NCBI GenBank assembly: GCA_000934665.2
Contig: KZ538406.1
Coordinates: forward strand, 53,893-73,892
Origin: Catajapyx aquilonaris
Taxonomy: Eukaryota
DNA: 20,000 nt
Reading direction: 5' to 3'
In this document: piece by piece, positions 1 to 20,000 of the stretch
How positions within the stretch are numbered: position 1 is the stretch's first letter
Layout: the number at the start of each line of letters is the position of its first letter
Notes under the pieces: model-generated
The model's database searches: none
The model's input: only the letters and a program-made list of their open reading frames with translations
Told to the model about the DNA's origin: nothing
Position numbers and translations under genes: made by a program

Positions 1-155
1 GATTTCCCTATTGGCAGAAAATATACCGTTAATAGTATGCTACCTGTTCCAACTTCCAATGTACACGGGTGAAAAAAATCTGTCAGATAATACGAACACC
101 TACCTTGGAAAGTGCAGTGGTGGGCACATTTACTGTTGGTTTTTGTGGCCGTCAG

Positions 156-599
156 AACTTGAATCACTGGGTGTCGAGCTGGGTGGACTGGAACATGGCC
201 CTGAACGCAACTGGAGGACCCAACTGGGCGGGTCTAGGGGCAGACTCGCCCATCATCGTCAACTCAACATCAGACGAGTTCTACCGTCAGCCTCTCTTCT
301 ACACCATGGCCCACGTGTCCAAGTTCTTCCTACCTGGATCTGTCCGAATCGGGACCACATTTGCCTTCGAAGGAGGGCCTTTGGAAGGAGTGGCCGTTCG
401 CAGGCCGGACAAGGCCATTGCCATATTCCTTCTCAATAAGTAAGAGACTTTGCCCTTTCACGCCTATACAGGATTGACATGCTCGCCTTTTCCCCTCAGG
501 AACGATCAGGATGTACAAGTTGTGCTGCAGGATCCAGAAAGAGGAGTGGCCAAGTTTACTAGTTACAAGAGATCGATTCAGAGTGTACTTTATTGGTAG
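156..599 (+). CDS. GBA: Lysosomal acid glucosylceramidase (GH30), last two coding exons (156-439, 500-599); 5' part lies outside the window
   Basis: Exon 156-439 translates NLNHWVSSWVDWNMALNATGGPNW...DSPIIVN...DEFYRQPLFYTMAHVSKF, matching the GBA DWNLAL/GGPNW/DSPIIV/FYKQP/HFSKF motifs. A 60-nt GT-AG intron (440-499) joins in frame to KNDQDVQVVLQDPERG...SIQSVLYW* (TAG 597-599), which resembles the GBA C-terminus. Confidence 0.95.
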
Positions 600-1164
600 G
601 CTTAATTTTGAGTGCAAAGACAGATATTTTACCGTTTAGTCACCTGAGATTTGGTTTTTACTCAGGAATTAGTATTAGACTACACGAATTGGTTCCATGC
701 CAGAATGAACCATTAATATTTTAATGCCCTTTATTTTGTCTAACTTGGGCGGCTAAGTGCATTTCAATTTCTGTTCAAAACTGACATACAGACACATAGG
801 CCTGCCGGCATGGTTCCATAATCTAGTCTGCTTATTTGCTATTTGTGTAATTAAAAAAAAAAAACTGACCCACACGAAGTAAATTTTTATACTGTAGTAC
901 CGTAAGTTATGCATATTATTGACACGAGATTTAAAACACTACTCCATGATTAATGAGAAAATATAAACTAAATGTTATGGTTATTTATATACCGTCAATC
1001 AGATCCTATAGTACACTCTGGCGGTATATGTTAAAGTTATTTTTTAGCCTGACGGAAGTATTCTCAATGTTATCAACATTTTGTAGATTACATCTCAAAG
1101 CACAAAGTTTTAGTCGTTACATATATGGGTCAGAAATCGTGCACTCAACTGGAATAATATTGTA

Positions 1165-1235: not shown

Positions 1236-1728
1236 TCAATTCTGTTTCTTGCGAAATAGGTCGATAATTCGACGAACTGACTCGTGCTCTGCCACATCTT
1301 TCAGATGAGTGGCCGCCTGTTCAATTTTCTTGGCGTATTCACTTACGCGATCCAGAAAGTCTCTCAGGCCTCGTTTCTCTGACGGTAAAGAAAGAAATGT
1401 CAGGATTTTATCAGATAAAAACACATTAAAAATATTATAAAAGTCACCTCGCAGTGTATGAGCGCTCCTTTTATCCAAAGGAATGCCTCTGAGATCATTA
1501 TCCAGCTTTTCGAGATCTGCGAGTGTATCTAGGTTATTGTCAGCAGACCTCTTCTCGAGTGACAGTGCTACAATAACAATGCAACAATATTACATAACAT
1601 GTACGTATATTAATACCTTAAGTCTTAAAAAGACAGAACTGAAATCCGTACTCACCCGCTCCATTTCCCACATGTATCATCACCAGAGCAAACACAACCA
1701 CAGCAATCCATACGTTTAATTTCGCCAT
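1236..1728 (-). CDS. Uncharacterised 111-aa secreted prepropeptide (candidate antimicrobial, toxin-like or signalling peptide precursor); exons 1728-1656, 1567-1448, 1378-1236
   Basis: ATG at 1728. Two phase-1 GT-AG introns (88 nt GTGAGT..TAG; 69 nt GTGACT..CAG) give an uninterrupted frame: MAKLNVWIAVVVFALVMIHVGNGAALSLEKR-SADNNLDTLADLEKLDNDLRGIPLDKR-SAHTLREKR-GLRDFLDRVSEYAKKIEQAATHLKDVAEHESVRRIIDLFRKKQN*. Hydrophobic signal peptide, three KR sites, upstream TATA box and downstream AATAAA all support a real gene. Confidence 0.85.
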
Positions 1729-1766
1729 GTTTGAAGTATGGATCTCAGGCAAAGAGAAACATGCAG

Positions 1767-3361: not shown

Positions 3362-6300
3362 TTATGCGACTTCATCTGTAGGTTTTTCTTTCTTTCGCCT
3401 ACAGCACTGGGAGCAAAATATATTCTTCAGTATCTTGTTCTTTCCTAAATCTCGTGCATCTGTTCTCTGGCCCTTTGCAAACACCAAAAATATCTGCTCC
3501 AAGGTGGTCTCACCCACCGAATAGTCCTCCACCAGGGGCCATCTCTCCTTTATACCCTCCAGTTGCCGAAACAGCGTGGACCAAGGAATCTTCGGATCCG
3601 TCACGTGATAATGTAGAAATCCCTAAAAAGATACCGTATGTTTCAAACTAATAATTACGGAGATTCTAAGCACTGAAGTTCATTGCTAGAGATTTCATCA
3701 GTGGTGGAATTTCACCTGGTTTTTATCCTTGAGGACGCACGGTGCGAGTTTGGTGAGTATTTCTGTTTCGAGAACCTCTTCGTCCTTCAGGGCATGAGGC
3801 AGCTCCACCAGCATCGTCGGCCTCAGTTTGACCAGCACCGTGAAGCCCTGCCCAAACTTGTTCTTCAGCTGCTGGGGACTTCCCAAGCACTGGAACTGCC
3901 CGTTGACCATGATGGCCACTCTCTGGCACAGCACTTCGCATTCCTCCATGCTGAAATTAAGGGACTGCTGGATCACACACCCCGATGGTTGATGGCAGAA
4001 TATATTTCTTCTACCAATAATAATAATCACCTGTGCGACGTGAGCACAACGGCCTGCCCCAGCATCTGGATGTTAGCCAAGGCTTTCCAAAGCCTTCTCC
4101 TGGCCCTTGGATCCATCCCGCTGGTTGGTTCGTCCAGGAGAACCAGAGGGGGGTCGCCAACTAGCGCCATCGCCGTGCTGAGCTTCCTCTTGGTGCCTGA
4201 GCTGTACTGGCCGCACTGCTGGTCACAACTATCCTCGAGGCCTGCAACGTGCACAAGAAATGGCTATTTATCACCTGCTGCACCAATTGCATCCCCTGTT
4301 GTCAGCTAACTTACCCAGGTATGCCAGCCATTTCTCAGCCTCGCCTTTCACTAAAGACCAGGGGACTCCTCTGAGGCTCGCAAACAGCTGCAACATCTCC
4401 TTCCCGGTCAGGGTGTCCACCAGCCCGTCGTACTGAGGACAATAACCGATGCTCCGGAGGTACTGCAGGTGCAGTTAAGACAAGGGACGGTTACAATGAT
4501 CAGATGTTATTTATCTGATGCAACTGACCTCTGAAGTTTGTCCCTTGAGGGAATAGCCCTGGACAACTGCGTTTCCCCTGGTGGGACGCATGTCCCCAGT
4601 CAGCATCCTGAACGTGGTGGTCTTCCCCGCTCCGTTGACGCCTAGCAACCCGAAGCACTCGCACAGGTCCACCCTGAACGACAGCCCCTGAACGGCCACC
4701 AGGGACCCAAAGGTCTTGGCCACGTCCTGGACCAGCAGAGCGTGCTTCTCTTCTGCTTCCTCTGGTTCTGACGACTTTCGGTGAAGGCTTTTCTTGGCCA
4801 CCAGCTGCCTCTCCAGCCTGACCTCCTCCTCCAGCTCCGACTCTCCCATATCCACCGTGGTCCCCCTGTCCTTCAGCAGCATCTTCAGGGTGCGGCTGCC
4901 CTCCAGCAGCAGGACCAGCAGCATGTAGGCCGTGCCCAGGAGGAACATGTACACGATGCACTGCCCCGGAGCGGGTAGCTGTCGGTCGCTGGGCGTCTTC
5001 GTCTGTTCCTTTCCGCAAGTCTGTTCACCTCCGCCGGATCCTTCCACCGTCAATTTGCCCTGCAGCACTTCCCAATCCAGGTACTTGATGACCTCGTGGC
5101 AAGCGTGGCGATTCAGGCGGCAAAAGTTTTCTGGGGCACAGTAAGAGTTGCCAGTTAAGCTTTTACTCGCAGATAAGTCAAACGGTCTGTTCCATTTTTT
5201 TAAAGGTCCAAGTGACAAAATTATACTCATTCACAAAACATAATTATTGGAGATTTCCTCCTGACGATTTGATGCAACCAGCACTTTACGATAACATTAT
5301 AGTGGCATTGCAGGAACAGTAAAATTATAGCAAATACGTTTCGAAACATAACGAATCATTGACTATTATACAAGTGAGTGTATACGCATTAGCAACCACA
5401 TACCGCAGCAGGAGTATATGGAGTTGGCAAACGCAATACTTCTGGGGCTCTGGCTGAAATCCTGATCGCACGTGCTGTTTAGGAATTTTTCGGTGTAGTA
5501 TTTGCACTTGTTGTTCTTGGTGGCGATCTGGGAAAACCGAAGAAGTCCGTAGGAGACCAGGTAGGCAGGAAAGAGCTGGAAAATCCATCGCAGGATGTTT
5601 GCCACCAGGGCGTCGTTCTTGTCCTCCTCCAGGGTGAACACCACGTAGCACAGGACGGTACCTGGTTCCAGGTGGAGGTGACGACACGTCACACTGTTTA
5701 CGTATGCAAGGTACCACTACACACCCTTATACTACAGGATTTTCTCTAGAGAGGCAGACAAACTGAAGAGTTTTGTAATGATTCTAGTAACAGAGCGACT
5801 TTCTCGCATTTCTGTGATCATACCAATACAGTAACATACGTATTATTTTGAATATCGCAGACTACAGTCATTGAAAAGCTATATGGGCTTCTTTACGCAG
5901 TTTTACAGCTAGATCTCCCTATACACTCTGCACACCCGCACTCACCGCTGACAACATGCAACAAGCTAACCAGTCCCAGGGCTCCAGATACGCTCTTACT
6001 GAAGAAGCTGACCAGGTAGGAGAAAGCCAGGCTGCACCAGCTAAAGGTGAGGAGCAAGTAGAATATGCTACCTGTGCGATATAAAGGTACCACCTTGAAA
6101 TGCCTATCGCAATGGGAAATTCATCGCAGCCTCCACCAATCCACGACTGGAAACAGTAGACTAAGTATTGTATACTGACCAAGGCCTTCGAAGTGGACGT
6201 ATGTCCCGATGTCGTCCATGAAGTAGATGACCAGGACGACCAGCACGTGGGTGAGCAGCACGAAGAGGGTGTCCCAGAAGAGCATCACCATCCAGTAGGT

Positions 6301-9300
6301 GACGGGCGAGGTCCCGGTCATGAGCTGCAGCTGCTTGGCCGAGGAGATCTTCTCTTGGGTCGGGGTGATGAGGAATCCCGTGGCCAGGAGGGACAGGCCG
6401 ATGGTCATGAAGATGGAGAACATGACGCTGATGTTGAGGAGTTTGCTGGCCCCCGAGGAGATCGGGAGGAACCCTTGATGACCCACCACCATCGGGAGGG
6501 GATAGTTCGCCGTGGTGATGCTGTATTCTGAGTCCTTTCCTCCGGTGTAATGTCTCAGCATCGCGTTGTGGACCAGGTTCAGCGAGAGAGGCGCCCCGTG
6601 GAAGGCGAAGGCGGAGAACATGGCTACCACCTCATGGCCGCTCTTGAAGTCGGCCGCGACCACGAAGGCCGCCTTGTAGGCCATCTGGTCCTTTCTGGCC
6701 TGGTCCAGCAGCGATTGGGTTAGGTTCTGGTTCGTGTCCACCTGAAAGGAACGGTTGTCAACTCCCCAACTATCAACTTAATTTTTGCCCAAGACCTATT
6801 CAACTCAGTACCTGAGTGAATATGGAGTCACCCGGGATGAAACTCTGGTAGACCTGGACTATCCCCGTCCCGTTGGGCCATCCTTGAGGATCCAGGTGGA
6901 CCATCGTGCTGGTGTCGCTGTAGTCCTCCAGACTGAATACTCGGTATGGCGGGGGCTCTGGCTGGGTGTACATTTCCACCGAGTGGTTACTCAGCACGAT
7001 GCAGGACACGGTCAGGAGCACCATGATGAAGGCCTGACCGATGTACATGGGCCAACGACGGAACATGTTCAGGAAGCTCTTTATCATCAGGGCTCTCAGA
7101 CGCTGGAAGCCCAATAAGACCCCGCGGAGCTTCTCGCTCTGGGCCACACCTTGCAGGACACAAAGAAGGACTATAGTTATGACTGACAGGTTGCTTCCGG
7201 ACAATGCAGTTCATGTGGTACTGCTTGCTGGGACAAACCTTCCCTGGATATCTTTTCATCTATACAGCAATTATTCAATCTTCAACTGTGGACTTTGGAC
7301 AGTGGCTTTACTTACTTTTTCTTTTTCGGAGTGAGACAACATTTCCCTCCTCTAGCGTCTGCGGCTCCTCCGTATCCTCTTCAACTACTCTGCACAAAAT
7401 GAGAAAATTTATGACAGAGGGTTACAGTGCTGTCACTATATACACGATTGTCTGGCTGATACAATGGAACCAAGTGCACCTGTTTCCTTCCGCTGACATT
7501 TTCATTTACAAAAAAAAGAGTACGGACTTATGGCCTTAATAACTTACTTCATGAAGACGTCATCCATGGTGGTGAGCGACACCCCGAAGCTGGCTATGCC
7601 CAACTTGCTTCGCTCCCGGTCCATGACCTCGAAGAGCTGGAGGAACCTGGAGCTCTGGTTCACGGGCAGGCGGTAGCCCAATTCTTTGTTGGAACTGGAG
7701 GGCTCTCTCTTTACGCCAGGGAACTGGGACTGAACCAGTCTAGTCACCTGATCCTCATCGCCAGAGCTGGACATGGTCAGCTTCAAGTGGTAGCCCATCT
7801 CTGCAGGAGTGACCACGAAGGTGTTGCAAAACTACGATATAGGCCCAAACTACATGACAGAGAATCACTTTATGTAAAGATGTCGTTCGGCCTGTGCCAC
7901 CTTGTTATCGAGATTGGCTTCAAACGAAAGATATGAAGTATCCTGGAAGATACACGTCACGTCTCGCTACCTTGCAGTTATTTTTTTAATTTTAATTTTT
8001 CTTTACATTATAATAACAAGGCTGCGGACGGTCACCTAAACGGCACTCCTATACAATTCTCCTGGGTCAAGGGGTCATCTTATAGGCATTTGTATGCATC
8101 ATTACGAAACATTCTGTATCATACGTTGCTGTATTTCAGAACACGTATATATACGTGTTCTGAAATACAGCAACGGCATTTCATTTGATTACCATAAGCC
8201 TTTTTGAGGAAGTGCGGACTTCCGCAGCACTTGATGCTTCCGTGAACCATGATTGCAATGCGGTCGCCAAGAATGTCGGCTTCCTCCATTATTTGGGTGG
8301 TGATCAGGGTCGTGTACTGCCCTCGGAGTTCCTGCGTAAGGAAGAGCTCCCAAAGAGTTGAGCAATCAGCAAAAAAGAAGATGAATGCACCTTACCAAAA
8401 GGAGGTCCCACACTGCTCGACGCGCTTCAGGATCCATTCCAGACGTGGGCTCATCAAGGATAAGCACCTGGAACATTAACACACATTACCAGATTGTTCT
8501 CTACGAGTGTGTACAGAGACTTATCCTGGAAGTCAGTCTTCCGCGCATTGCAAGAGAGGTGCATGGGTTGCCCTCGAGGGATATGATAAAATGGAGGAAA
8601 TACTATTTTTTTTCGGAGAGTTATGACTCAAGATTGACATTATGTGCAGCATACCCGTAGCAACATTAAAAGTCATCACCTGTGGCTCTCCTAAGAGAGA
8701 GATCCCTAGACACAGCTTCCTCTTTTGTCCCCCGGAGAGGGTTGAAGCCACCGCGTTCAACTTTTCCCGAAAGTTCAGTTTCTCGGCCAGATCCTCCGCT
8801 TGCCTGCTGGCGTCAGCCTTTTTCATGTCCTTCAGCTGCATACCCCGCAAGATCACAATTTATTACTAAGCACACCAATCTCAGACCATCTGCATGCTCA
8901 ATTTAATGCTCATCCCATACCATCCCGAAGAAGACAAAGTGCTCCTTGACCGTGAGTCCCTCTATCAGCATGTTGTGCTGCGGGCAGAACCCGACCAGCC
9001 TCTGTGCCTTGGCGAGGTGCCTCTTGATGTTGACCCCTCCCACGTGGGCCCGACCTTTGTCCGGGGAGTAGAGGCCAACCAGCATGTTGAGGAGGGTGCT
9101 CTTCCCAGCCCCAGTGTCTCCCAACAGCACCGTGATCTGCCCCTGGAAAGCGGTCAGGGTGGCGTCGGACACCGCCATCACCGTCCGTCCCCCGAACAAG
9201 GAGAATGTCTTCTGCATGCCCGACACCACTATTCCGGCAGGAAGACCCTCCGGTTCCGCCTCGAAGCTCGGAGTTGCAGATGGCAAAAGCTCTTCCTCCG

Positions 9301-12283
9301 GACCCGGATCTGGGATGGTCTTTCTTATCCGTTTGCGGCAATCGCATGGCTAATAAGGAGGGGATTTAAAAACTGTAACATACTATAGTAGTACGCCGAC
9401 GAAATTTCCACGCTTTGACATTTCGCAGAAGGTCGACGGCTCACTTGATTTGAAGGAGCCAAAGCAACTATGGCTATCTGGCTATGACACAAGACACAAG
9501 GGTGGGACAGATGGAGAGAAAAACGAATAAGAGCAGCTCTTGATAAGAGACAATAAAGAAGAGTCTCCCAAAGATCTGTCCAACTTGGGTGGCCATATAC
9601 TAGTATAGACGAAGCTATACCGCCGGCATAGCTCTTCGGGGTCATGGATCTTACCCGAAAGATGAAGTACCACGGCTTGGTCACGCCATATCCGCCGGGC
9701 ATCACGTTGGAGACGTACACGGCAAGGGCGAGGTATATGACAGTGTCCACCGTCAGCATGATGTACACGTCCGCCACGGTAAAGTTGTCGTCCATTTCTC
9801 CTAGGGGCGTCAATAGCTTTCCAGGAGTGGTGAGCTTCCCAAACGTTAGTCTCTGCCCTGGGCGACAATGAAAAAAGAAACAAAAAACACACGCAGTCAT
9901 ACTCATGAAGGTGCATAGGCTTATCAAATACGAGGATCCTCAGACTACTTTCGCTTCCTACAGTTTTCCTCGTATATGGCGAATACCACTAGCCCTTCCG
10001 TCAGCGCTGCGTGCGGACTAAGGCAAGTCAGCATTTTGACAAGGTACGAGAGGGTCGGGTATTTGGGCAGAAGGGTCAGCGCTGGAGCCAGGTAGCTGAT
10101 GATCCAGAGGGCCATGCCGACACCAGTTGCAGTCGAAGCTGCGGAGAACGAACGGATGAGAATCGAGCTGGGTTCACACGGGCGTTGCTGTCATTGTCTT
10201 TCGGGTCTGGAATTCACCAGCCAGACAACAACGACCGTATGAGCTCAGCTTATTGTGCCAGTGTGTGCACTGACATGAGTTGAAGAAAGCGCTTATGGTG
10301 AAGCAGAAGGCTGTGCACGAGGTGGTGTACAGGGCCAGCAGGAACCAAACTACTCCAGGGTTGATGCTGTCCAGGACTGCACCTGTCCCGGAAAAGTCGA
10401 ATACAAGCAGGAAGACTACCAGTATGATTGACACAGAGATTGTCATCAGGACGTTGCAGATCCAACCAACCAGGTTCAGCCACTGGGGTACACCCACCAT
10501 TTTCAACAGTTCCTGAAAAATATTATTGCCTGATTGTTGATTGCGGCACAAAACCAGCATTGATCTGGGATGTTCTCTTAATACAACCCACCCTGCGCAT
10601 CTGCACGAAAAACTATTATAGGCAAATTCTAAGATTGCTGGAGAAAAATTCCTAAAATAATCCTAACACCTTTTGACCCAAGTTCGGTTCCTTCGTATTG
10701 CAAAATCACCACTTTCTACTCTAATATCATTGGGAACAACCTCACAAATAATATTATTACGACATTAAACACATCCTTAAACGCATCTGATATTTGCGCA
10801 AGAACCGTACAGTCATTCCCGTTTCCTTTTCCTGAACTACGCCGTTGATGACTGAGGGACAGATGAAAATAAACCCGAAGACCAGAAAGTTGGGCAAGAA
10901 AATGGCGAAGAAAATGTGAAAGTCCTGAGGCGGTCTTGCTTTGTCTTTGGGTAGAGGCAGCAGTTGAAACTTGACCTGGCAAAATAATATTTCTCATTAG
11001 CGGCCTTTGAAGTAAGGGTCAAACGTTTGTCCTTACATAATTATTTGTTTCTTTCCCCTCCACACTTGGGGGAAAATCTTTTCACGGCATGAGATCCTAC
11101 CTTGTAGTCGGGAACTGTTGAATGGGACACCATTTTGATGAAGGATCTGTCTATGAGAAGCTGAAGAGTGGTAAAATCTCTCTGGATATACATGAGGGCT
11201 GGAAATTCACACGAAATCATTAACTCAAATAAACGATAACATGGCTTACTTAAAATGCTATAATGGCTCCCAGCAGATAGAGTTGGTACAACCTTCATTG
11301 ACTCCTTATAACCTTACAGCTACTTGTACTCATCAGTATAGCTTACCCTGGTTTCGAAGTTAATAAAGCATTCTCATGAAGCACTTAAATATCTTACCGC
11401 CTTGACACCAGAGAGCGTCGGAAGCGATCCTGAAGTTTGTAAACTTGTGATTTGTGTTCCAGTTTGGAGGATTAAACCTGAGGGTGTAATTCAAATGTTT
11501 AGGCGTGGATTCGTCCGAAGGAACGTTATCGAAGAAGACATTTCCTACAAAATTATGGTCATTTAGGGTCATGTTCATGCCAAACGCAACCAGATCTTCC
11601 ATTTTGTCTAATGCCTTCATATCTGAAACATTGACTCAATGTTGCGCGTGCATATAATATTAAAGTATACTCTAACTACAAAAGGTTACTTACACCATGT
11701 TCCGTTTTCGACAGGGGAAGTTGATATAGTTTTGTGTTGTAATTCCTCCGTCTTTTCAAGTTGCCACTTGAATGAATTATCGATGTCTTTCCAAACCTTC
11801 ATTTCTCTCTCAACCATTTCCATAATTTCTCTTGTAAATCGAGTGTTGGGTGCGTACCCAACAAGCAGTGGAAGATTAGCATATTGTGGTTTCGGAAGAT
11901 TTGTCATTCCAACTACCAGGTCTTCAGAAATGGTGGGATATGTGATGTCTTTTGTGTCATGTACCTTTCGAAAAACCAACTCACTCGTAAGACTGACTTG
12001 TGCAAGTAATATGCCAAGTAGTTGGCTGCGTACGACTGACCTGGTATTCTGCGCGGTCGGCTCTCATCTTGGCCAGAATGACGGTCAGGAGACATGGAAG
12101 AATGAGCTCCACGATGGTCAGGATAATATGTCTCTTCCGAAGCAAGAAATTCTTCCACATGAGCAACGTAAAGTGATGCCAATGGCGCTTCGTTGACTCC
12201 CGACATTTCTTTGTGCCTGAGCGACGATAAGAACTTATCGTGCTCTCAGCCTCGTGGGAACGGCTAGTCATGCTAAAAGGCAT
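3362..12283 (-). CDS. ABC transporter subfamily A, full transporter (ABCA3-like), about 1827 aa, 23 coding exons
   Basis: Frame-consistent GT-AG exons: 12283-12041, 11964-11694, 11622-11398, 11198-11101, 10975-10811, 10512-10275, 10138-9962, 9857-9655, 9349-8921, 8835-8680, 8467-8396, 8331-8193, 7800-7548, 7389-7316, 7149-6812, 6741-6180, 6071-5946, 5661-5404, 5130-4529, 4462-4315, 4241-4031, 3950-3716, 3622-3362 (5484 nt). ABCA hallmarks: [42 protein letters not shown]1 ([34 protein letters not shown]), TTMDDVF, NBD2 ([40 protein letters not shown]), [13 protein letters not shown]. The exact start ATG is uncertain. Confidence 0.95.
8124..8175. repeat. Perfect 52-bp palindrome in an ABCA intron
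   Basis: cgttgctgtatttcagaacacgtata (8124-8149) is followed directly by its exact reverse complement tatacgtgttctgaaatacagcaacg (8150-8175), with no spacer. Confidence 0.95.
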
Positions 12284-13501: not shown

Positions 13502-13725
13502 CGGGATCGAACCGGGTCAGAAAGTTGTTGGAGCTGGCAAGGCCAAGGGGCTGGAATAATTATTTCACATTCGTCTCGCCGGGGAAAGGCTGCTGGTTAG
13601 CCGAACTCTGCCCGGACACACCGGGAGGACACGGGCCGAAGATCACTGAGGGTAAAATACCAGGGGAGGACCAGCAGTTTCGTAAGGGTAATTATTCTCG
13701 TTCCACTAAATTCCAGGTGCTCGTA

Positions 13726-16700
13726 ATGGAGCAGGAAGCACCAGTGAAGGTTTGCCCGGTGCGGGTGGCCTTGCGTGTGCGGCCACTCATTCCTAAGGAG
13801 GTTGGCGAGGGGAGCCAGCAGTGCCTGGAAGTGGTCAAGGGGCAGCCCCAGGTCGTGGTCAAGGGGAACCGGTCCTTCACCTACGACTACGCGTTTGGGC
13901 CTGAGACCTCGCAGAAGGAAACTTACCAGCAGTCGATCGCTGATGTCGTGCAGAACCTGTTCAAAGGTAGGCTGCGTAGGAAATCCAACAGGATGTCGGT
14001 CACTCGACTAATCCATGTTGGAGGGTGCTGGAGCGGAATTGGCAAACCGTCCAGATTTGCTAAGATGGCTTATGGAGGGTGTTATGAGACCTAGCCTTCA
14101 TTTGTGGACTGAAAATTTTCAGCCATGATCAAAGTGCTTATATTGTCATATTTAGCATAATTATGGTGCACAAAAGGCAGTGTAAATATGAAGCAGAAGT
14201 GTAAGACACGGTACCGTACAGGTCGAGAATCCTTGATCAGAAATGCCCAAGTCCTTCAATTTTAAGAGTGCTGCTCACAAATTGAAAATTCCATGTGATT
14301 GTGACATGACTAGCTTCATTACGTGTATCTGAAAGTATAAAAAATTATTACTAAATTCATAATAAAACTTCCTCCGGGGTTTATTAATCTCTATTAAGAA
14401 ATGTGTGTGAAGGTCAACTTGAGGCATTTAAGTCATACCAAAGCAGTCCTATTTTATAGATGCAAACATTCGAATATTCCAACATCTTTAAAAAACGAAA
14501 CATTGCCTGCCCCAAGCGTTGCGGATAAAGGATTCTCAACCTGTACTTGACTCATTCCGATGAGGAACCAGAATCGAGTTGCTCGCATCCGAAAAGCATG
14601 GAAGCCGGTAGTGAACTGGCACATCTGGCCATGAGTGCTAAATGTCACCATTGCATAATTATGACATGCTATTTGGTTTGCTAATTGTGGCCAGTGTTGA
14701 ATGGGTCAACGAGTTGGGTTATGTTCTATAAAATGGCGGGAAATAAATTAACTGGGATGTCGCTAAATATTGTCATCTCCTCAGTAATGCAAAGAGATTA
14801 GGCTGGTTCACCGCTCTCATTCTTTGCAGAGGCTGCAGCATTAACATTGACTTCTCAATAATTAGCCAAAATGTACCCTTTTTTCTACACTCTGACATTG
14901 TTTTTTCTGTGATTACCAGGTTACAATGTCACCGTTTTTGCTTACGGCCAGACAAGCTCTGGGAAGACTTTTTCTATGGGAACATGCTACGACTCAGCTG
15001 ACACAGAAGAAACCAAAGGAATAATACCAAGGGCACTGGACGATATCTTTGCGGGAATCCAGGCTCGCCCGGACTGGGACTTTGAGCTGAAGGTGTCCTT
15101 CATGGAACTGTATAATGAGCAGCTCTATGACTTGCTTGCGCCCAATCGAGCCGTGGTGGATCTTCGAGAAGATCCTACTTTTGGTGTGAAAGTGGCTGGA
15201 TTGACTGAGGTATGTTGGACTTCTGATGCGGTTTTCCTCCCTATCTTTGCCTATTGAACCTTTCCACTTGTTTACATCCCAACTTGTGTTGCCTTTACAT
15301 TTGTCACCCATCACACCATGTATTTTTCCCTTGCTCACAAGCTGTGGGGTTCGCTACTAGGAAAAAGTAACTTACATCAGTAACAGTGCATTAGAGGCCA
15401 ACACCCTGTGAATGGACAAGCAATTTTGACCTTTGTTGATGTGTCCTATTAAGTGAAAATACATAGTCTTGAGGGGACAACCCTCAGTTATATGTACTGT
15501 ACAAGTTCTCCAATCTGAAAACACTATTGTCTCATTAGTTTGATTTCTCTTGATTGTTCTAGATGGTTGTCTGCAGTGTGGCTGACACCATGAGAAGCCT
15601 TGAGCTTGGTTCTCAGGGGCGTTCAACTGGTGCAACAGCCATGAACCATAAGTCCAGCCGCAGCCATGCTATTTTCACCATGACGATCGAGCAGTGGCAG
15701 CGAGAAGACAGTTCCAATGTTACCTCAGCCAAGTTCCACCTGGTAGACTTAGCTGGATCCGAGCGCCTGAAGAAGACGAAAGCTGAAGGGAGCCGTCTTA
15801 AGGAAGGTGTGAACATTAACATGGGACTGATGACTTTGGGAAAGGTCATCAAAGCTCTCTGTGATGGAGAGTCACACATTCCTTACCGGGAAAGTCGCCT
15901 GACACGACTCCTGCAGGATTCCCTCGGGGGAAATTCCCACACTATTATGATGGCATGTGTCAGTCCAGCAGATGTTAACCTTGATGAGACAATGTCCACA
16001 TTGCGCTATGCAGACCGTGCCCGTAGGATCAAGAACAAACCGATTGTAAACAGAGATCCACAGGCTGCTGAGATTGCACGTCTGAAGGAAGAGGTGAGAC
16101 GTTTGGCAGCCATGTCTGGCAGTGGCGGTGATATTATCGAGGAAGTCCATCGCCTGCGGACTGAGAACCATCGCTTGGCTGCAGCGCTTCAGGATGCTCT
16201 GGACAAAAGTGCGGCCATGGTGAATCAACTTGCACAGTCTGGATCAGCACAAGAGCGTATGCGCTTGCAGATTAATGACCTGCAGCGAAGGGCCAAATGT
16301 ATGGTGGACTTGAACCAAACGTATGATTGCTCTGATGGAAGTACCAAGTTGCTAAAGGAGCTTGAATCAAGACTGAGTCAGGCTGCAGAGGCATCAAAGA
16401 ACAAGTTGCCAGAGTTGGAGGAGGATAAGGAAGAGGGTGAAATGAAAGATGATGATGAGGAGGAGGAGGAAGAGGATGAGGCCAACTTGGTCCTGAAACA
16501 AGCGGAAATGAACCGAGAGCTGGAGCGTCTGAATCGTGATTTGCTGGACAGGGAGGCGTTAATGGTGCAGGTGGCCCAGAGTGCAGGCATGATGGGGGAT
16601 CAGGAAGGCAGAGCTGCTGAGGAGGTCAGGCGCCTGGAGGACGAGGTGGAGCGTCTGTGTAAGGAGAAGGAGGAGCTTCAGAATGCTCTCAGGAATGCCC

Positions 16701-19700
16701 GTACCAGTGCAATATCTTCCAAGTATATGCATAATTATGAGCTTTTGTAATAGTAGTAATTGTGACTGAAAGTCTAACTAAAATATGTCTCAATTCTTTC
16801 TAGGTTGGCAGAGGATCGTCGTAAGCGGGTTCAGGAACTTGAGAAGCAAATAGGTGATCTCAAAAAGAAAATCACAGAACAGGGCAAGATGTTGAAGGTC
16901 AAAGAGAAGACAGAGGAGAAAGTGAAGCGTCTAACATCTGAGATAGATGTGAGTAGCTGCCTGGTATTTAGAATGGTCAGGTTAATTTAATTTGTTTTAC
17001 TGGAGACGCTAAAGCACATACTGTGTGGCTTTTATATCGAAAAATAAATCAGCCATTAAGTGGTAGGGAACTGCAGCTTGTGAAAGAATAAAGTTGAACG
17101 AGATTTTTTTGTGTGTGGATATTTGAGATCAGCATTACATTTGCAGATGCAGCAAACATTGTGTATTGCTAAATGTGCGAGTCAACTATTTGTGTAAAAA
17201 TTAGTCTTGTAGTCACAATAACATGTCGGCTAATTTCCCAGGCCATGAAGCACAAGAAGGTGGAGCTGATGCGCCGCATGCGGGAGGACTCGGAGCGTTT
17301 TCGCCGTCTGCAGCTAAAGCAAGATCGGGAAGTGGTGCAGCTACGCCAGAGGGAGCGCCGCCAGGAGTGCCAGCTTCTCCGTATGGCCCAGGCACATACC
17401 AAGCGTCAGAATGTCCTGCAACGCAAAGTGGAGGAGGTGAATGCCATCAACCGTCGCCTAAAAGAGTCCCTTCAGATCCAGAGGGCTGCCAGGGAAAGTC
17501 GTAGCAAGAGCAGCAGCAATAAGGCAGCCAGCAGCAAGGGAGAGGATAGGATTGGCAGCTGGATCTCCCAGGAGCTCCAGGTGGCCATAAATCGCCACGA
17601 CGCCCGGTTCACCCTCCAGGAGCTGATGGATGACAGGGCTTCATTGAGCGGAAAGGCAACCTGGGCCAGGGAAATGGCTCGAGTAACCAAGGATCGTGAA
17701 GAAGCAGACCAGCATGAAAAGGATGCAGCCCAATGTGAGGGAGAGGTTGCTTCCATCAGCCAACAGATTGCTCAGCTGCAAGAGAAGCTTCTTGAATCAG
17801 ACACAGGTCAGTGGTGCTTGTAGGAGTACAGTAGTTGCTTTGGTTCCTTCCCAATCAAACAAATGAAAGGGATTATTTTTCTAAAATTTGACTACTTCAA
17901 ACTAGGGGTGCGACTTAGATTCGAGTCAACACTGTGATTAATCTTTTCTGCCAGATTAAATTGATAATTGAACCCCTCCCTTGAAGAAGGGTGTATGTAA
18001 CAAAAGTGAAGTTTAGAGAAAAACAGAAAAAACTGGATGGAATAACCAACCTTATGGGACAAGCTACCTTTCGAGCTCTGCTGTGATGAGCGAAATTGCC
18101 ACACGCACCCAGGTGGTATCATTATGATGGAACAGAAGGGATACTGTACTACCTTTTCCACTGGCCAGTTCACTTTAGGCAATTTTGCAACATACACCCT
18201 TCTTCGAGGGATCGGTTAAATTGTAGTTAAAATGCTGGTGTCAGAGAAATGTTTCAGAATTATTTTTGATGTCGAAATGCTCACTGATGATGATGGGTTG
18301 TCAAAGGTATAAATGCAATCGGTTTGTGGGGGAATGTGTCGGCATCTGCTAACTCCCAATGTTTTACCTGCAGAGTCAACAAAAGAATGGTCCCGATGGG
18401 ACAGCATCAACACAGTGAGTGAGGCCAAGTATGGACTTAAGTACCTGTTCCGCCAGGTTGCTGCCATCAAGACAGAGGCCACCGTACAGGGAAAGCAGTT
18501 GGAAAGTGTTAAGGTAATGTCAGAACCACCATGTCATTCACAAATATTTAAATTGGCCAAGGATTCATATAGGAGCCCTGTAATGTGTTGTTTCATAAGT
18601 CCGGAGAGAAATTAATAAAGAAAAAGTTCATCATACAAGTACAGTCGACTCTGGATATAAGAGCCTGGGCTAAAAGCGACCTTGGGTTAGCCAACTCAAA
18701 GGACTCGTTCCGACATACTTCCATACTGTAAACGTATGGCCTGTGACCTGTGTGTTTGGATATGGGACATTTAGAATATAGGATACAGATTTTCACTGTC
18801 CCTTGAAGTCTCTTACAATCCCAAGTCAACTGTTACACAGTGAAACCTTTTTGCCTTCTCTGGCCCTCCCCCATATTTATTTCCTGTTTCAGAAGAAATC
18901 AAATTTGGAATGTAAAGCAACTAAAGGCAGGGAAACATAAAAGACTTGAATAATTTATAACAACATGAGGTATGTGCAATGGGATCAGATTGACATGATC
19001 CTTTCCAGCTTGTGGGTTTCCTGGTAATTTGGCTTGCTCTTGCACCAATTTTTAAGCACTAGTGGATTGCCATCCTCCAATACCAGTGCTACAGCTGAAG
19101 TGTGAAAATAGTGTGCGACATTTTGACATGAGATGTGCATAACATTCTGCGCTTTCTGTATTGGGTAGATATTTTGAAACAGCTTGTGTGTATGGGTTCT
19201 TGTTTATGAAATGACTGAACTTATCTCAAGATTATCTAACCTCACACCCCACCTTTTTTTATATAGAACTACAGCACCAGCCTACTGGAAGAAATAGAAA
19301 AGCTCAAGCGGAATAAACAGGAACTGCAGGCAGCCCACCGTCAGGAACTCAACACCTTGGAGCGGGAGCATGAGGAGAAAGTGTTGACTCTGCTGGGACA
19401 GTTCAACACCACTGCCTCAGAGGCTGCCGACACGGATAACAGCAGCCAGCTGGGTGGAGAGGACTCTGTCCTGAAGCGTGTGCGGTTCCAGGAGGAGGAG
19501 CTGGTTAGATCCCGACGAGCTCAGGAGTCCCTCAGGGAGGAGCTGGAGCAGCTCAGGAGGGAGTTGGCCACTCGAAAAGCAGAGGCTGCGGCTAAGACTC
19601 TGGTCATCAAGACTGCCAAGGGGGCCAAGTCAGCCCAAGCAGACAGACACCATACACCAATGACCCCAGAAACTCCAGACGGAGCCACGTCACAGGGTGA

Positions 19701-19751
19701 AGATGATCCCGAAAAAGACCCGGATTGGACCAAGACTCCCATTTACAGGAG
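13726..19751 (+). CDS. KIF4: Kinesin-4 family chromokinesin (KIF4/Klp3A-like), 3' incomplete; exons 13726-13966, 14920-15209, 15563-16722, 16804-16948, 17242-17806, 18374-18513, 19267-19751
   Basis: [39 protein letters not shown] (P-loop), SSRSHAIFT (switch I), [12 protein letters not shown] (switch II), [42 protein letters not shown]. Kinesin-4 stalk features: [61 protein letters not shown]. All junctions are GT-AG and in frame. Confidence 0.93.
14219..14543. mobile_element. pogo/Tigger-type MITE (325 bp, TA-flanked) in the first KIF4 coding-region intron
   Basis: TA|CAGGTCGAGAATCCTTGATCAGAAATGC at 14217 onward versus the reverse complement of the right end, TA|CAGGTTGAGAATCCTTTATCCGCAACGC (element ends at 14543, TA at 14544-14545). 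Confidence 0.8.
17973..18215. mobile_element. Degenerate TIR element, possibly a piggyBac-type MITE, in a KIF4 intron
   Basis: tcccttgaagaagggtgtatgtaacaaaa (17977-18005) matches the reverse complement of 18183-18211 at 26 of 29 positions. Ends read TGAA|CC...GG|TTAA. Confidence 0.6.
18642..18832. mobile_element. Possible old pogo-like MITE remnant in a KIF4 intron
   Basis: TA|CAGTCGACTCTGGATATAAGAG versus the reverse complement of the right end, CAGTTGACTTGGGATTGTAAGAG. Several mismatches, one gap, and an imperfect right TA. Confidence 0.4.
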
Positions 19752-20000
19752 GTCAGTGCGTAGTGAATGCTGCCAATTTAAATTGAAGGGAATGCATTTA
19801 AATTGTAGGATATATATAGTATATATCAAAAACTTTCCCTTCAGTAAAAAAAAGAAGAAGTAAGACCTCCGCGGCGGAATAAAGGTACTGAAACAAGGCA
19901 GGTGCACGTAAGACCTTCACCAATTGATTTAAGCTGTACCATAGGTCTTACTCAAGCAATTTCCAATTCACTGCTCATGAAGTCTCCTTTCTGAAACAAA

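Follow-up and report, generated by a model that had tools for sequence, protein, structure and literature searches.

The precursors of frog skin AMPs are described as tripartite, with a signal peptide, an acidic pro-region and, behind a Lys-Arg (KR) pair, the C-terminal peptide (PMC7693824). As far as that account goes, the hydrophobic residues of natural AMPs are quoted at 40-60%, and the ocellatins show an invariant Asp4, a net charge of only +1 to +3 and usually at most 2-3 acidic residues (PMC7693824). In the precursors of the long scorpion NDBPs, as described, the mature peptide lies directly behind the signal and the propeptide is C-terminal. Regarding arthropod hormones, the basic DH31 gene is outlined as three coding exons which hold the signal, a conserved peptide and DH31 respectively (PMC6585902). 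DH31-like transcripts have also been reported, without functional tests in the account at hand, from several arthropod venom glands, and therefore the recruitment of a DH31 gene would have a precedent. Finally, the class A helix, as summarised in PMC7451220, carries its bases where the polar and nonpolar faces meet, and its acids in the middle of the polar face. Here we describe a locus within a stretch of 20,000 nucleotides (the window), which is a transcribed and spliced three-exon gene for a precursor of 111 residues, and we compare it with these systems.

The gene lies on the minus strand, where an ATG at 1728 opens coding exons of 73, 120 and 143 nt, that is 112 codons including the stop. 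A 370-nt contig (one sequencing run, X1, of one study) matches the locus with zero mismatches, covering 1232-1378, 1448-1567 and 1656-1758 and skipping exactly 1379-1447 and 1568-1655. Since this cover is confined to the exons and the joints are GT..AG, we read the contig as a spliced transcript; its source is a single run whose kind is not on record, and its depth is no rank of expression. The original prediction had drawn a three-exon gene for 111 residues and had set the junctions 1655/1568 and 1447/1379 as the check. The contig bears out this gene model to the single nucleotide, skipping precisely both introns.

Exon 1 (1656-1758) comprises the 5' UTR and the coding part 1656-1728 with the signal peptide, exon 2 (1448-1567) the pro-region, and the coding part of exon 3 (1236-1378) a KR site, the mature peptide and the stop codon. 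Intron 1 (1568-1655, 88 nt, GC 0.30) and intron 2 (1379-1447, 69 nt, GC 0.26) are both AT-rich, both of phase 1 and both bounded by GT..AG. Upstream, on the same strand, there is a putative TATA box (TATAAA, 1798-1803), 31 nt upstream of an initiator-like site (TCACT, 1768-1772) which is the probable transcription start, the contig reaching 1758. At the other end, two AATAAA signals (1192-1197 and 1169-1174) in an AT-rich 3' UTR may serve for polyadenylation. No second copy of the peptide gene was found within the 20-kb window.

Two further observations concern the transcript. A short upstream ORF (1745-1762, minus strand), out of frame and of 5 codons plus stop, lies around 10 nt past the likely transcription start. 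Besides, intron 2 is stop-free and in frame, with a GTGACT donor, so that its retention would insert 23 residues and turn the R-E-K-R furin-type site, which the intron splits, into a plain KR site. The contig holds the spliced form only, rare variants being beyond what one contig can show. A model of the read-through of exon 2, intron 2 and exon 3 was of low confidence (pLDDT 61), and in a word search with the same read-through none of the 31 candidates, with lengths of 59-191 only, reached E<=10.

Regarding the precursor, exon 1 encodes an uncharged run of 21 residues, whose best Kyte-Doolittle 12-mer is 3.08, and from the sequence the signal peptide is likely cut after residue 23-25. Exon 2 carries a first candidate dibasic site (LEKR, 1548-1559, minus strand), an acidic spacer peptide of 25 residues and net -5 (1473-1547), which is partly helical in a low-confidence model, and a second candidate site (LDKR, 1467-1478), followed by Ser-Ala as at the first one. 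Intron 2 falls within the third site, R-E-K-R, which directly precedes the predicted 44-residue mature peptide (1239-1370) and fits the furin consensus. Cys is absent from all exons. Our recount agrees with the original prediction on the three KR sites, the acidic spacer, the charges and the hydrophobic positions, and by sequence the architecture of a secreted precursor holds, in which signal and KR sites are followed by a 44-mer that is free of Cys.

Both exon-2 sites read Leu-acidic-Lys-Arg-Ser-Ala (1461-1478 and 1542-1559, minus strand). The repeat suggests that the motif was either duplicated long ago or kept by selection, and as its residues are kept though only 2 of the 6 codons are identical (11 of 18 nt), selection on processing is suggested. 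This bears on whether the intact 44-mer is the product at all. Cleavage might continue inside it, at the RR of positions 33-34 or at KK, the acidic 25-mer might be the active piece, or the locus might be a young, near-neutral orphan gene; we regard this whole set of readings as very improbable. The 44-mer indeed contains internal dibasic pairs (mature positions 14, 33, 40 and 41), and the GC3 of the peptide exons (1239-1728, minus strand) is 0.44-0.46, lower than the 0.56-0.81 of the three neighbouring genes sampled. However, Ile comes next after the internal RR, which the convertase rules disfavour, and convertases rarely use KK sites. Furthermore, the suggested selection on processing, the complete set of promoter, splice and polyadenylation signals and the extreme helix pattern described below argue for function.

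The predicted 44-mer has a mass of 5,225 Da and a net charge of +2 (10 K/R, 8 D/E, 2 H), with neither Cys nor Trp and a single Gly, at position 1. AlphaFold2, run with no alignment, folds it as helix-kink-helix with high confidence (mean pLDDT 91), namely a neutral heptad helix over residues 1-27, a kink, and a cationic helix with a tail over residues 31-44. Residues 1-27 have net charge 0, and their amphipathicity was reached by only 4 of 10,000 shuffles. Among 14,556 six-frame 27-mers of the window 4 matched it, probably the peptide's own overlapping windows, and the same value was found in 1 of 30,069 windows from KIF4 homologues and in 22 of 18,520 from GBA homologues. Over all 44 residues, however, nothing stands out in the 100-degree moment, which 819 of 10,000 shuffles reached. 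Thus the single 44-residue amphipathic helix first proposed stands for residues 1-27 and not for the whole peptide; in the model the 44-mer is two helices and no single continuous one. An artefact or a chance ORF is ruled out by the exon-skipping contig, the gene signals and the extreme amphipathicity of residues 1-27.

The two parts differ in character. Helix 1 is Ala-faced and of low mean hydrophobicity (0.18; around 0.0-0.2 in its 18-residue windows), and the last 14 residues (31-44), with +4, are the sole cationic part. The hydrophobic residues are 17 of 44 (39%), just under the range quoted above for natural AMPs. The 44-mer probably binds membranes or lipids, and it may serve defence, signalling as a hormone, or the handling of fat.

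Helix 1 follows a perfect heptad, with L2, V9, I16 and L23 at a, F5, Y12, A19 and V26 at d, and L6, A13, A20 and A27 at e, and its best helical period is 103-104 degrees. This pattern favours a non-lytic secretion peptide that binds lipids or bundles with itself, either like a class A helix of apolipoproteins or like a small coiled coil, and whose task in the haemolymph, the cuticle or a gland secretion would be to carry, emulsify or organise lipid. We consider this unlikely, with some points in its favour. At 103 degrees, 4 of the 5 basic residues stand at the rim and 4 of the 5 acidic ones in the middle of the polar face, but this segregation is a trend only (17 of 252 and 25 of 252 permutations). 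The top PDB sequence matches are designed antiparallel coiled-coil bundles, but they are weak repeats summed, in which no single stretch passes. With the model peptide 18A the 44-mer has six ungapped identities, which is chance level (7,472 of 100,000). Moreover, an acidic pro-region with several KR sites would be superfluous for a simple lipid carrier.

The neighbourhood has also to be weighed here. The peptide gene stands tail-to-tail with a GH30 glucosylceramidase gene (1-852, plus strand), whose 3' end the X1 contigs extend to at least 852, around 300 nt from the polyadenylation signals of the peptide gene, and it lies downstream of an ABC transporter gene on its own strand (3362-12250, minus strand), whose A-subfamily label is our reading of the translations. 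A KIF4 kinesin gene with few large exons comes next (13700-19900, plus strand), head-to-head with the transporter gene. The peptide could possibly be linked to the neighbouring transporter and glucosylceramidase, which would suit a lipid-binding role; nevertheless, in animals the gene neighbourhood seldom implies a shared function, and the presence of lipid-handling neighbours may be a coincidence.

These flanking genes also say something about the host, although they are distant from the sequences compared with them. The GBA exon is mostly 44-60% identical to its homologues over the full length, with insects and crustaceans in the top rows, and the KIF4 stalk is 27-32% identical to known relatives. 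In a tree of 18 rows, the KIF4 exon has a long branch (2.06) and falls outside the non-arthropod group (91/96), with no resolved position among the pancrustaceans; this placement is weak. Together, the flanking sequences suggest a pancrustacean host.

As regards relatives of the precursor, no homologue appeared in the databases searched, in line with the earlier remark that no named family was recognised. Pfam gave 0 families for the precursor, NCBIfam sub-cutoff matches only, Rfam none, and an exact look-up of two sequences found neither. A full HMMER scan of 1.84 billion representatives returned 2 matches, which we rejected since they are long repeat proteins that hit pieces of the pro-region by summed repeats. 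ESM Atlas, searched twice, gave no usable match; its recognition is low, so neither absence nor novelty follows. As to fold, Foldseek had 0 matches, and the best VIA-align result (Z 5.0, rmsd 4.0, 46 aligned) corresponds to generic long helices, both searches being uninformative. Five short motifs of the precursor had no occurrence in the literature searched. The orphan status holds only for these databases, the newly reported neuropeptide-like families of insects (iPTH, fliktin, hansolin, CNPLP-1 and FERLQ-like) being left out of the sequence comparison.

Of 424 seeded stretches in a metagenome scan, a single one passed. This match (L001:2001-2159) is the C-terminus of a bacterial DusB, whose terminal helix is identical in 22 of 56 positions to the KR site together with the mature peptide, including an exact stretch of 9. 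The DusB model has no match to the peptide, and we therefore discarded the stretch as a chance helix match. Taken as a control, it shows that unrelated proteins can match the helix of the 44-mer at around 40% by chance.

This control matters for another candidate explanation, namely that the 44-mer is a peptide hormone or a neuropeptide-like ligand, with a class B GPCR as its probable receptor; the gene would possibly be a duplicate of that for DH31 (the calcitonin-like diuretic hormone), far diverged and without the glycines and the amide. We judge the hormone reading possible, if somewhat unlikely, and DH31 ancestry, which makes up a share of it, quite improbable. The multiple KR sites suit a hormone; three such sites, two of them followed by Ser-Ala, are more like a neuropeptide precursor and speak against a defence role. 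Compared by exon number and roles, the gene has the three coding exons of the DH31 gene as described, and the mature peptide likewise starts just after KR at the beginning of the last exon. Aligned by eye to lobster DH31 with one 4-residue gap, the 44-mer is identical at 10 positions; a Gly-Leu start, Leu6, Arg8 and a Gln-Ala-Ala-x-His-Leu stretch are common to the peptide and DH31. Among 150,000 composition-matched random 31-mers, 22 reached ten identities, and with the first two letters fixed 250 of 150,000 did, in a comparison made post hoc and picked out of many families. In addition, by eye, 8 of the 18 beetle DH31 precursors in the published set show the exon-2 helix pattern L-x-T-[LI]-A-x-[LI], 2 of them exactly.

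The differences are, however, considerable. DH31, as described, is 31 residues long, has glycines inside the chain and ends in a Pro-amide (encoded as Pro-Gly plus basic residues), whereas our peptide is 44 residues long, lacks these features and has 1 Gly against 8 in DH31. Among the 18 divergent DH31-gene peptides in the published set, all 18 keep a hydrophobic-Gly core and 17 the amidation Gly end, and the 44-mer has neither; conversely, the extra KR site and the short peptide found here are absent from the DH31 precursors as they are described. Helix-pattern matches as strong as that of DusB arise by chance, and the word search, HMMER and ESM Atlas gave no DH31-type match. In the window there is no CATATG E-box, which is the DIMM motif, and the E-box scan is at chance.

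If the gene nevertheless came from a duplicated DH31 gene, an outcome that we hold quite improbable, the copy would have kept the exon plan and scattered residues, replaced every internal glycine and dropped the amide. In a hexapod or crustacean lineage that branched early, a GPCR ligand would thereby have turned into a secreted, membrane-active effector, its helix now continuous, lipid-binding and extended by a new cationic tail. Regarding the CRF-like hormones DH44 and DH37, the length is similar and DH37 is likewise non-amidated, ending at the stop codon in the precursors as described; 0 of the 11 DH37 precursors listed end in Gly, so non-amidated insect hormones exist. Nevertheless, by eye the N-terminal Ser-Leu-Ser-Ile-type motif was not found in the 44-mer, and there is no Pfam match. 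Thus two negative statements of the original prediction were borne out, namely that the peptide does not match CRF-like DH44 and that it lacks an amidation Gly, since it ends without Pro-Gly and basic residues. On the whole, the class A and heptad character of helix 1 and the partial likeness to DH31, neither of them mentioned in the original prediction, keep the hormone and lipid-binding readings alive.

Our best explanation, which we put forward tentatively, is a membrane-binding peptide of defence type, that is, a lineage-specific effector of host defence or of a gland secretion. After removal of the signal peptide, furin-type and prohormone convertases would cut the three KR sites, and the cut at R-E-K-R would free the non-amidated 44-mer, which the acidic spacer (-5) may keep inactive until then. 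On lipid surfaces the 44-mer would take up its helix-kink-helix fold, in which the short C-terminal helix, with its +4 over 14 residues, would dock on anionic membranes, and the long neutral N-terminal helix would rest on the surface or bundle via its heptad face. Such an effector might perturb membranes, convergently with frog skin AMPs and long scorpion NDBPs, with a lytic potency that is probably modest.

This defence-type reading is favoured by the spliced contig, the tripartite plan, the two confidently modelled helices, the extreme amphipathicity of residues 1-27 and the cationic C-terminal helix, and also by the start and length shared with long scorpion NDBPs and the Asp4 and low charge shared with ocellatins, as detailed below. 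Effector peptides evolve fast, so the orphan status fits as well. On the other hand, the net charge of +2, the 8 acidic residues and a helix 1 of net 0 and low hydrophobicity argue against a lytic defence peptide, as does the single copy in the window. Upstream of the gene there is no exact kB consensus, one site with 1 mismatch being found at 1960, and the number of kB sites over the window, 79, is what chance gives (mean 86). The membrane-active defence or venom peptide first proposed therefore keeps the support of its plan, helices and amphipathicity, whereas charge, acidic residues and hydrophobicity count against it and nothing supports a venom.

What this locus offers is a secreted-peptide gene with transcript support, to which the databases searched hold no relative. 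It comes from an arthropod lineage that has been little sampled, and its mature peptide is short enough for direct synthesis and testing. If antimicrobial, the 44-mer would add a bihelical scaffold of low charge that is new; as a hormone, it would be a possible ligand for an orphan class B receptor; and if derived from DH31, it would show how hormone genes can give rise to linear membrane-active peptides. The precursor architecture itself is familiar, which limits the present interest.

Compared with the known systems, the precursor agrees in plan with the frog AMPs of dermaseptin type, having a signal, an acidic spacer, KR and a C-terminal, linear, Cys-free amphipathic helix. The 44-mer shares Gly1, Asp4 and a low net charge with the ocellatins as described, and these make a low charge with Asp4 compatible with AMPs, but it has 8 acidic residues against usually 2-3 there. 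In the account consulted, frog precursors have one KR site and mature peptides of 21-32 residues, against three sites and 44 residues here; the frog signal peptide ends in Cys, whereas the present precursor lacks Cys and an amidation Gly and comes from an arthropod host, and no sequence homology to frog AMP precursors was detected with Pfam or the homologue searches.

Regarding the long scorpion peptides (NDBP-2, a class of 39-50 residues including hadrurin, pandinin-1, opistoporin and heterin-1), the 44-mer agrees in size and shape with those listed, which are of 41-49 residues, Cys-free and helical, and by eye 3 of the 9 listed share its Gly-hydrophobic-x-Asp start. The order of their precursors is reversed relative to ours, where the pro-region comes before the mature peptide; their charge is +4 to +7 in 9 of the 9 listed, against +2 here; and they come, as listed, from the venom gland, several of them carrying Trp, whereas the 44-mer has no Trp. 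A likeness to pandinin-1 (around 6 identities with one gap, by eye) was judged unremarkable. Thus the dermaseptin and scorpion analogy drawn at the outset serves as a way of working, in the frog precursor plan, but fails in the scorpion precursor order, the charge, the Cys-ending frog signal and homology.

The class A helices of apolipoproteins are zwitterionic like helix 1; unlike them, the 44-mer sits behind an acidic pro-region and has a strongly cationic second helix. As the precursor fails defining features of the frog AMP precursors, NDBP-2, DH31 and the CRF-like DH, it is assigned to none of them. We did not find its sequence family, or the design of a neutral helix joined to a cationic one, described before, whereas a linear amphipathic peptide released by convertases is a known kind.
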